From a virus (taxonomy: Duplodnaviria > Heunggongvirae > Uroviricota > Caudoviricetes), in IMG/VR virus record IMGVR_UViG_2531839666_000021, positions 1-10,930 of that record: a stretch of DNA of 10,930 nucleotides; one strand, 5' to 3'. Under the pieces are notes generated by a model. The model was not told the DNA's origin and did no database searches. It was given only the letters and a program-made list of their open reading frames with translations. This document shows positions 2,158 to 7,901 of the stretch, piece after piece; position 1 is the stretch's first letter, and each line of letters begins with the position of its first letter. The translations under genes were made by a program, and so were the position numbers.

Positions 2158-3091
2158 ATGACTGATATTAACGATGTAATCAAGACCATTGATGAACTTA
2201 TTGATGGCGGCGTACTGACGCAGTATGCCATCGCCAGAGAGGCGGGAATTTCCGACGGCACATTATCGGCTTTCCGCAAGGGGAAATATAAAGGCGATAA
2301 CGCCGCTGTGGCTGCTTCCCTGCGTTCCTGGTATGAGAACTGGAATAAACAAAGCGCACTGCCGGAACCGCCGCAGTTTGTGGAAACGCAGACAGTTCAG
2401 GAGCTGCGCGCACTGTTTCAGGCGGTTCGCCTGATGGGCTGTATTAACGTCATTGTGGGCGTGCCGGGGGTAGGTAAAAACGGCCACCGCCCGTAATTAC
2501 TGCCAGGAGCAACCAAACACCTGGATGATCACCCTGTCACCCGCGCACTCCAGCGTCACGGAGTGTCTGCTGGAGCTGGCCGATGCGCTGGGGATTGATT
2601 ACACCCGCGCGAACAAAGGGGCATTATCCCGCGCCATCCGCCGTCGCCTGATGGGAACGCGTGGACTGGTGATTGTGGATGAGGCGGATCATCTTGGTAT
2701 TGACGGTCTGGAGCAACTCCGGGCAATTCAGGACGCCACGGGGATCGGGATGGTGCTTATTGGTAACCCGCGCGGATTGTTTAAAGGTGGACGCCGCGCC
2801 TTTGATGATTTATCGCGCCTGTTCAGCCGTCTTGCCCGTACAAAACAACTTCGCAAGGCCAAAAAGGCGGATGTGCTGGCCATTGCCAGGGCATGGGGTA
2901 TCAGTGGTGAGGCCGAGCTGGCCGTCATGCAGGCTATCGCTGAAAAGCCGGGAGCGTTACGCGTTCTGACACATACGCTTAACCAGGCGTGGCTCACCGC
3001 CAGCGGTGAAGGTGCGGCGCTGACAGAAAAACATATTAATGCGGCCTTTAAAGAGGTTTATACCAACCCTGAATTACTCTCACAGGTGTGA
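2158..3091 (+). CDS. MuB-like AAA+ ATPase (transposition target-DNA activator B); frameshifted at A5 run 2476-2480
   Basis: RBS GAGAGG 2144-2149, ATG 2158. Frame-1 ORF 2158-2496 ends GVPGVGK-NGHRP*; frame 2 continues KTATARNY...WMITLSP to stop at 3091. The joined product has Walker A GVPGVGKT and Walker B LVIVDEADHL and resembles MuB over its N-terminus and core. Confidence 0.85.
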
Positions 3092-3429: not shown

Positions 3430-3581
3430 GCGCTACCACACGTTTTGCACTGAAACCACGCCGCCGGTAGGCAACGTGCAGGGAACCGGTGAAATTGAAA
3501 TCACCATACAGACCAACGGCCTGCGCCGCCGTGTGAAGGCCACCCGCATCAGCGGCTGCACGGTTTACTGGGAGGTGTGAG

Positions 3582-3863
3582 GTGAAAAAAAATCTCATTG
3601 CATGGGCGTGGTCGAGTGGTCTTATTGAGTTTGGTTACGTCCTGCCGGAAGGTGCATTGCCGATAGTTGCCGGAAAGCCTGCCACGGTACGGCATGTGAT
3701 TGAGGTTATGGCGCGTCATGGACGTGATGAACAGGAGCAGTTACTGGTTCCGGGGATACCGGAAGCGGTGACGGAGGAAGAAGCCTTTAATGCCATGATT
3801 CGGTTCTGCCGTGAGGTCAGACGCCGGGTCAGTTATCCAAACAGAACGAGGACCAGAGGATGA
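3582..3863 (+). CDS. hypothetical protein (93 aa)
   Basis: GTG 3582 with GGAGG 3571-3575 at a 6-nt spacer; stop overlaps the next start (ATGA at 3860-3863). Confidence 0.55.
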   Translation: MKKNLIAWAWSSGLIEFGYVLPEGALPIVAGKPATVRHVIEVMARHGRDEQEQLLVPGIPEAVTEEEAFNAMIRFCREVRRRVSYPNRTRTRG

Positions 3864-4430: not shown

Positions 4431-4440
4431 GGAAAACAAA

Positions 4441-6663: not shown

Positions 6664-7215
6664 ATGATGATTTTACAACCCATGGGGAGAAAAGGCCGTG
6701 CACCCGCTCATGTCCGTGCGTGGACACCTGAAGAAGATGCACTGCTGATTGCGCTTTATCCATCCACCCCGGTTAAGGATATTGCTGTCAGGGTAAAAAG
6801 AAGTTTCTGGGGTGTACATAACCGGATTGTTTTATTACGCGGTACTTACCCGGAGTTGCTCAAATGCAAACGTCCAAGATTTAAACATGATGAAGATAAA
6901 TTTATCCGAAAAAATGCCAGAACGATGACCGGTAAGCAAATAGGAGAATATCTGGGGCGAGACCGGGATTCTGTCCACAAACGGGCGCGATATATTGGCG
7001 TAAGCATGAAAAAATACGGAGAGTTGCTGCCCTTCACCCGTATACCTGATGATGATGTTCATCTTATTCGTGAATTACGGGATGCTGAATCACCACGACG
7101 TCTTACCTTCCGGGAAATAGGCGAGAAATTTGAATTATCCGAGAGTACGGTGAATTTTATTTATCACCATCGCCGGACTGCCGAAGATGTTGTATTACGG
7201 GAGTTAATGCCATGA
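6664..7215 (+). CDS. putative DNA-binding protein with repeated Myb/SANT-like or GcrA-like HTH motifs
   Basis: RBS GGGGG 6654-6658, ATG 6664. Motifs AWTPEEDALLIALY, MTGKQIGEYLGRDRDSVHKRARYIGVS and LTFREIGEKFELSESTVNFIYHHRR. First gene of the AT-rich island. Confidence 0.55.
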   Translation: MMILQPMGRKGRAPAHVRAWTPEEDALLIALYPSTPVKDIAVRVKRSFWGVHNRIVLLRGTYPELLKCKRPRFKHDEDKFIRKNARTMTGKQIGEYLGRDRDSVHKRARYIGVSMKKYGELLPFTRIPDDDVHLIRELRDAESPRRLTFREIGEKFELSESTVNFIYHHRRTAEDVVLRELMP

Positions 7216-7427
7216 TAACGACATTATTTGTTGAATCAGACGAGCCTCTGGTATGTGCCGCCGGAATGTCGGTTTGTGGCGGAACGCTGACCGGTGTTTA
7301 TTTCGGGGATTTGCGCGGTTATCCCTGGCATTCACTGGATGACGCATTTCCGCCTGATATGGAGGCAGTCGTGCTGATTGTTCAGTATGGTGCAACAGGA
7401 ACTGCGCATCGGCCATATGGGGTATGA
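7212..7427 (+). CDS. hypothetical protein (71 aa as given; probably 103 aa, 7212-7521, if one G is removed from the G4 run at 7419-7422)
   Basis: ATG 7212 in an ATGA overlap with the upstream stop. Frame 1 continues from about 7417 to the stop at 7519-7521, which would create an ATGA overlap with ATG 7518. Confidence 0.45.
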   Translation: MITTLFVESDEPLVCAAGMSVCGGTLTGVYFGDLRGYPWHSLDDAFPPDMEAVVLIVQYGATGTAHRPYGV

Positions 7428-7493
7428 AGGCTTTTTTATTGATGAAGAAACCGGAGCCTGCCTTGAAGATGAGGACGGACAGGTGACGCACTG

Positions 7494-7901
7494 GTGCCAT
7501 ATTTCAGCTTTACCGGAATGACGGGAGGTGAATGCGTGAGAAGTTATATTGATAATGAAAAACTGAAGACAATCAGCGACTGTCTTAGCTTGCTGGCAAA
7601 AATAAAAGAAACCATTGAAGAGATTAAATTTCAGCTTGAATACGCACCCTGTGGTGATGATACATGGCGTAACTCTGCCAGAAAAGCACTGGCTGTCTTT
7701 CAGAAACAACGCCGGACTGTTGAATACCGCCTTGCTGTATTACGCCAGGAGGAAAAGGAAAGAAATATAAGATGTCACGAGCGCGTTAATAACTTCCTTG
7801 TTCGTGAATTAAAGAACGTGTGCCGGAGTCGGTATTTTTTGAGTGTGAGGCTGTTGCCCGTAGCAAAGCACTGGAAACTGATTAAACAGGCAGGTGAATG
7901 A
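7494..7901 (+). CDS. hypothetical protein, predicted coiled-coil-rich (122-135 aa depending on start)
   Basis: Frame-3 ORF; candidate starts GTG 7494 (SD AGGTGA 7481-7486), ATG 7518 (ATGA coupling if the upstream frameshift is corrected) or GTG 7536 (SD GGGAGG 7523-7528). AT-rich. Confidence 0.5.
   Translation: MPYFSFTGMTGGECVRSYIDNEKLKTISDCLSLLAKIKETIEEIKFQLEYAPCGDDTWRNSARKALAVFQKQRRTVEYRLAVLRQEEKERNIRCHERVNNFLVRELKNVCRSRYFLSVRLLPVAKHWKLIKQAGE

Follow-up and report, generated by a model that had tools for sequence, protein, structure and literature searches.

The short open reading frame (ORF) at positions 7212-7427 of the window, the whole stretch of 10,930 nt analysed here, is what remains, at the 5' end, of a conserved 103-aa gene whose frame has shifted; the gene belongs to the early (semi-essential) region of a Mu-like prophage. 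The frame is lost through the absence of two base pairs (AC) between 7392 and 7393, and the truncated gene is most likely an error of the draft assembly and, failing that, an ordinary prophage pseudogene. The ORF encodes 71 aa; it starts at an ATG (7212) that overlaps the TGA at 7213-7215 closing ORF 6664-7215, and it stops at TGA 7425-7427, shortly after a GGGG run at 7419-7422. The original prediction held that this G run truncates the gene, given that with one G removed the frame continues as YEGFFIDEETGACLEDEDGQVTHWCHISALPE to TGA 7519-7521, which overlaps ATG 7518-7520 in an ATGA arrangement read as coupling to the next gene. All the coordinates on which it was built (the ORF, the GGGG, the stops, ATG 7518 and the ATGA sites) were verified in the sequence. 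The features of this part of the window are the following.

6664-7215, + strand: upstream HTH regulator gene (phrog_323), overlapping the target gene by a true 4-nt ATGA at 7212
7212-7521, + strand: frameshifted copy of the conserved 103-aa Mu-like prophage gene (phrog_6925; 312-nt CDS in relatives)
7392-7393 junction, + strand: causal lesion, 2 bp (AC) missing; relatives read GGTGACCAACAGG, the window GGTG--CAACAGG
7419-7422, + strand: GGGG run, unchanged in all relatives, where CAT ATG GGG TAT encodes H-M-G-Y, the conserved residues 69-72
7425-7427, + strand: premature TGA, met in the shifted frame only

At this site the relatives carry an annotated 312-nt, 103-aa CDS that runs from the equivalent of 7212 to the equivalent of TGA 7519-7521, so that the prediction was right in taking ORF 7212-7427 for a truncated gene and TGA 7519-7521 for its true stop. 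The comparison with related prophages, which had been proposed as a check for a protein of about 103 aa, indeed returned homologues of 103-113 aa in E. coli and Salmonella, conserved in their C-terminal half, and not of about 71 aa. The intact 103-aa protein was found on at least 1000 contigs, and for the 71-aa product EII23000.1 (locus tag EC90111_0352, E. coli 9.0111) is the sole record; the window's own 71-aa ORF agrees with the family at residues 1-60 only. The AC is missing in the window alone in both three-way and nine-way alignments (the AC-less form of the site is GGTGCAACAGG), and restoring it returns the true frame from ATG 7212 to TGA 7519-7521. Its loss converts residues 61 onward into 11 wrong residues followed by a stop. 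Over 7150-7950 the closest relative differs from the window by one substitution and two indel events. A 70-nt query across the junction reached a best identity of 97.2% (70/72) at 137 places in 128 complete E. coli genomes, and therefore none of the 128 shares the deletion. Exact searches of IMG/VR gave the same picture, with 0 contigs for the deletion junction and 8 for the intact version.

The window comes from E. coli O128:H2 strain 9.0111 (Stx2), whose genome is listed as a JCVI draft with the WGS prefix AEZZ (PMC3359367). The annotations of collinear relatives (96-98% identity) mark the window as the early region of a Mu-like prophage, in which MuA transposase, MuB AAA ATPase, Gam, GemA (gp16), Mor and lysis genes follow one another in Mu order. 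Collinear DNA is present in 249 of 5426 complete E. coli genomes, the best places having mostly 95-99% identity, and two Stx-phage records name the same DNA "inserted Bacteriophage Mu-like phage". The gene order in relatives begins with MuA transposase, MuB AAA ATPase, five small genes, Gam and four genes including the HTH regulator, and continues with the 103-aa gene, a 116-aa gene, three small genes, gp16/GemA, Mor, lysozyme, endopeptidase and LysC; the target gene lies between the HTH regulator and the gemA/mor genes. The 183-aa protein encoded by 6664-7215 matches phrog_323 ("transcriptional regulator, D5-like") with E=6e-58, shows AsnC/sigma-70 region 4 type HTH matches near residues 131-167 that are all sub-threshold, and bears varying RefSeq labels (AsnC family, DNA-binding, hypothetical). 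In two Salmonella Mu-like loci (L014 and L015, 1826-2896) the 113-aa homologue of the target protein is followed by a 356-aa gene matching PF04447 (dATP/dGTP pyrophosphohydrolase-like), which stands in place of the 116-aa and 110-aa genes of E. coli; this is a mosaic replacement downstream of a conserved pair formed by the HTH regulator and the DUF551-like protein discussed below.

The AC deletion does not stand alone. Fifteen indel events in the window are private, that is, absent from all eight complete-genome relatives aligned to it; they comprise 12 deletions and 3 insertions, mostly of one base in A/T runs, and are distributed as follows.

1101: -1, MuA
2090: -1, intergenic
2476: +1, MuB Walker A (inside the GVGKT codons)
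3419: +1, small gene (L003 3329-3583)
3437: -2, small gene (L003 3329-3583)
3452: -1, small gene (L003 3329-3583)
4623: -1, Gam
5636: -2, gene of the DUF5420 family (L003 5620-6153)
7392: -2, target 103-aa gene
7813: -1, next gene (116-aa family)
8696: -1, gene at L003 8424-8720
8982: +1, GemA
9195: -1, GemA
9239: -1, intergenic
10886: -1, LysC

About 10 of the 15 fall in runs of at least three bases, which hold only 17.7% of the bases of the window. Nine of the 21 CDS of the window are frameshifted, among them MuA, MuB, Gam and GemA, and all of them are intact in the eight relatives; it is because of these private indels that the window reads as split ORFs (for example 1-1272 with 1164-2087, and 2158-2496 with 2525-3091). 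Private substitutions number 39, of which 25 lie in a MuA tract at 333-843, two stem from the complex indel at 3437 and about 12 are scattered. None of the 175 substitutions that separate the window from L003 creates a stop codon (102 synonymous, 73 nonsynonymous). Run length also varies naturally among complete genomes: the A8 run at 3584 (GAGGTGAAAAAAAATCTC) is A8 or A9, shifting the PGAP start of the small gene behind it (3585 in L005, 3601 in L003), and the A-run at 4432, before the gam start, is A4 or A5.

Since the AC deletion belongs to a set of 15 small indels found in this draft only, the truncation of the target gene is most likely a sequencing error, and we infer, at a probability of about 70%, that the private indels as a group, the AC deletion included, arose through base-calling or assembly and would not represent mutations in strain 9.0111. 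In E. coli mutation-accumulation data, the natural indel-to-substitution ratio is roughly 1:10. The private changes of the window show a ratio of at least 1:1 (15 indels against about 12 scattered substitutions), roughly tenfold above it. JCVI drafts of the era of strain 9.0111 were presumably made with 454 sequencing. The window resembles the homopolymer indel errors of early drafts (pyrosequencing or long-read) in its many one-base gains and losses in A/T runs private to one assembly, as well as in its broken conserved genes whose products form singleton clusters. Independent analogous cases occur in other assemblies: P0046 (77 aa, from an E. coli contig of 2.7 Mb) is a scrambled version of the 103-aa protein, and P0018 (121 aa, from an NCBI contig of 5.5 Mb) is a frameshifted 116-aa protein whose shift lies in a T6 run (about 7835-7840 of the window) and whose out-of-frame tail LSVRLLPVAKHWKLIKQAGE is the same as that of the window's product. 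On the other hand, the target-gene lesion differs from such errors in being a 2-bp deletion outside any homopolymer; pure pyrosequencing error does not typically look like this, and it is the main point against a simple run-length miscall. The case for an artefact is indirect and consists of the excess of private indels over private substitutions and of the uniqueness of the lesion.

The alternative that the indels are real, so that the prophage of strain 9.0111 is decaying or defective with many genes hit, perhaps after a slippage-prone or mismatch-repair-deficient history, is unlikely, although it has several points in its favor. The frameshifts are in the deposited sequence and are annotated as such (EII23000.1, EII22937.1), natural indels and slippage mutations are themselves biased towards homopolymers, and the events at 3437, 5636 and 7392 are 2-bp or complex changes, unlike simple run-length miscalls. 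However, the excess of private indels over substitutions is far above the natural ratio, the window is free of nonsense substitutions, large deletions and IS insertions, and its gene order and length agree with those of intact relatives throughout. Additionally, the changes in the MuA tract at 333-843 are mainly at third codon positions, and therefore selection for function would have acted until very recently. In a narrower version of this reading the prophage was inactivated by a burst of mostly homopolymer deletions nearly without substitutions, for example in a transient mismatch-repair-deficient episode; this version appears slightly less probable still. The MuA tract itself, with its 25 substitutions absent from the eight relatives, mostly third-position, and its lack of indels, looks like a recombined allele under purifying selection; a 41-nt exact pattern gave 0 matches to another copy of this private allele in IMG/VR and the JGI metagenomes, and searching proteins with the MuA N-terminus yielded only cluster representatives that were partial or divergent. 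A second, clean assembly carrying this prophage allele did not turn up in these searches, which counts against the artefact reading.

Whether technical or biological, the lesion is not where the original prediction put it. An extra G in the run at 7419-7422, by slippage or by miscall, is a highly improbable cause of the truncation. Dropping one G does produce a long ORF with the correct stop, which is the strength of that model. Nevertheless, the run does not differ in length from that of intact homologues, as GGGG is present in every one of the at least eight aligned relatives, where it codes for the conserved M-G-Y in their own frame, and a relative combining GGG with an intact 103-aa frame was not seen among those aligned; locally, the AC deletion 27 nt upstream of the run is the sole difference between the window and the relatives. 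The C-terminus reconstructed by removing a G fits the family from YEGFF onward and fails before it, with ATGTAHRPYG at residues 61-70 in place of the family's conserved DQQELRIGHMG, an error that arises because the true lesion is the AC deletion at 7392/7393. Less credible again is the reading of the 71-aa ORF as a genuine product, or of the site as a programmed frameshift yielding two products: it has the existence of the ORF in its favor and nothing more, and against it stand the occurrence of the 71-aa form in one genome only, the single continuous frame of 103-113 aa in all other full-length members, a distribution of lengths by which it was ruled out, the lack of a slippery heptamer at 7392, and the loss through truncation of the best-conserved residues together with most of the predicted barrel.

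Downstream of the true stop the features below bear on the proposed coupling.

7518-7521, + strand: ATGA; the intact 103-aa gene ends at its TGA, and its ATG is probably no start codon
7523-7529, + strand: Shine-Dalgarno-like GGGAGGT, read from the sequence, 6 nt upstream of GTG 7536
7536-7885, + strand: next gene (116-aa family, phrog_6158), with a GTG start and its true stop at TAA 7883-7885
7813-7814, + strand: second private lesion, one base missing; relatives read TTAAAAGAACG or TTAAAGGAGCG, the window TTAAA-GAACG
7901-8233, + strand: following gene (110 aa, phrog_1988), which in relatives starts at the second ATG of ATGATG

In relatives the next CDS begins 15 nt past the TGA, at the GTG equivalent to window 7536, and this start is given both by PGAP and by the annotation of the source genome itself, where the product (P0016) begins MRSYIDNEKL. 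The protein aligns with phrog_6158 over residues 2-116 on profile positions 3-117 of 118, leaving no room for six further residues, and a start at ATG 7518 is therefore disfavored. With GTG 7536, preceded by GGGAGGT, as the annotated start of the next gene, the ATGA at 7518 is probably fortuitous, and the coupling predicted there did not survive the comparison. ATGA occurs 104 times on the + strand of the 10.9-kb window, so that an A before a TGA stop is in itself no evidence of coupling. As for the three other ATGA sites cited as precedents, relatives have a true 4-nt overlap both at 3860 and at 7212, the latter kept also in the Salmonella relatives (L014, L015). The one at 7898 exists only through the frameshift at 7813: the upstream gene misses its own stop, TAA 7883-7885, and reads on as far as TGA 7899-7901, so that its product has 121 aa and forms a singleton cluster. 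A further genuine stop/start overlap in relatives, at 8705-8708 between a 98-aa gene and gemA, is masked in the window, where the upstream gene runs beyond its stop codon owing to the deletion at 8696. The region thus resembles ATGA-coupled phage operons in the overlaps that relatives have at window 3860, 7212 and 8705, and departs from them at 7518, where the downstream gene starts 15 nt beyond the stop with its own Shine-Dalgarno sequence, and at 7898, where the overlap is a product of frameshift. A Pfam scan of the 116-aa and 110-aa neighbor proteins gave nothing significant.

The repaired protein, as found in relatives, matches phrog_6925 (PHROGs v4, unknown function) from end to end, with E=2.4e-52 and residues 1-103 falling on profile positions 1-112 of 113, and shares its position behind the Myb/HTH regulator with a 4-nt overlap in E. 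coli and in Salmonella (L014, L015); it is the same protein as this family and as RefSeq WP_000633438.1 and WP_044192708.1 ("hypothetical protein") of E. coli Mu-like prophages, whereas the window copy lacks 2 bp and retains 60 correct residues only. A library-wide profile search gave 17 cluster representatives only, and the family of 103-113 aa is therefore narrow. Its best-conserved residues in the family alignment are W39, P47, G68, G74, V92-T93-H94-W95 and P102. Three members score against the same part of Pfam DUF551 (PF04448), a small phage domain (P0001 13.0, P0050 15.9 and P0053 15.2 bits), all under the gathering threshold of 22 bits, so that they do not formally belong to that Pfam family. 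The THW...P motif of the family resembles the C-terminal hallmark of DUF551, whereas the extra N-terminal segment of about 45 residues sets the family apart. On the structural side, an AlphaFold model obtained with four distant members added to the alignment (pLDDT 80) was compared with BFVD by Foldseek, and the top matches were dominated by DUF551 proteins (probability 1.00, TM 0.4-0.56, best DUF551 E-value 1.9e-3), a similarity that holds for the predicted model. An earlier AlphaFold run with 11 close homologues had given a pLDDT of 53 and was too poor to use; a profile search of PDB sequences found no match. The intact protein may hence be described as a predicted DUF551-like small beta barrel of the Tudor/SH3 type, a small Tudor/SH3-like binding module being the furthest that a prediction of its role can go. 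The frameshift at residue 61 would remove most of the predicted barrel strands together with the conserved motif (G68, G74, V-T-H-W 92-95, P102), and on this model the 71-aa product, if it is made at all, is almost certainly non-functional.

These results have first of all a bearing on quality control, in that the 71-aa and 121-aa "hypothetical proteins" of the window are not to be taken as gene variants, and conclusions on operon structure drawn from its split ORFs, including ATGA coupling at 7518 and 7898, are unreliable. They also illustrate that repairing a frameshift at the nearest homopolymer may restore the right stop and yet misplace the lesion, inventing about ten wrong residues; since such a repair can mislead, comparison with relatives is needed. 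If the burst of indels were nevertheless true, the window would be a snapshot of very early prophage decay in which the DUF551-like barrel protein is disabled as well. A minor gain concerns the family itself, whose intact protein can now be described, at the level of the predicted model, as a DUF551-like small barrel of the Tudor/SH3 type that is conserved in enterobacterial Mu-like prophages.
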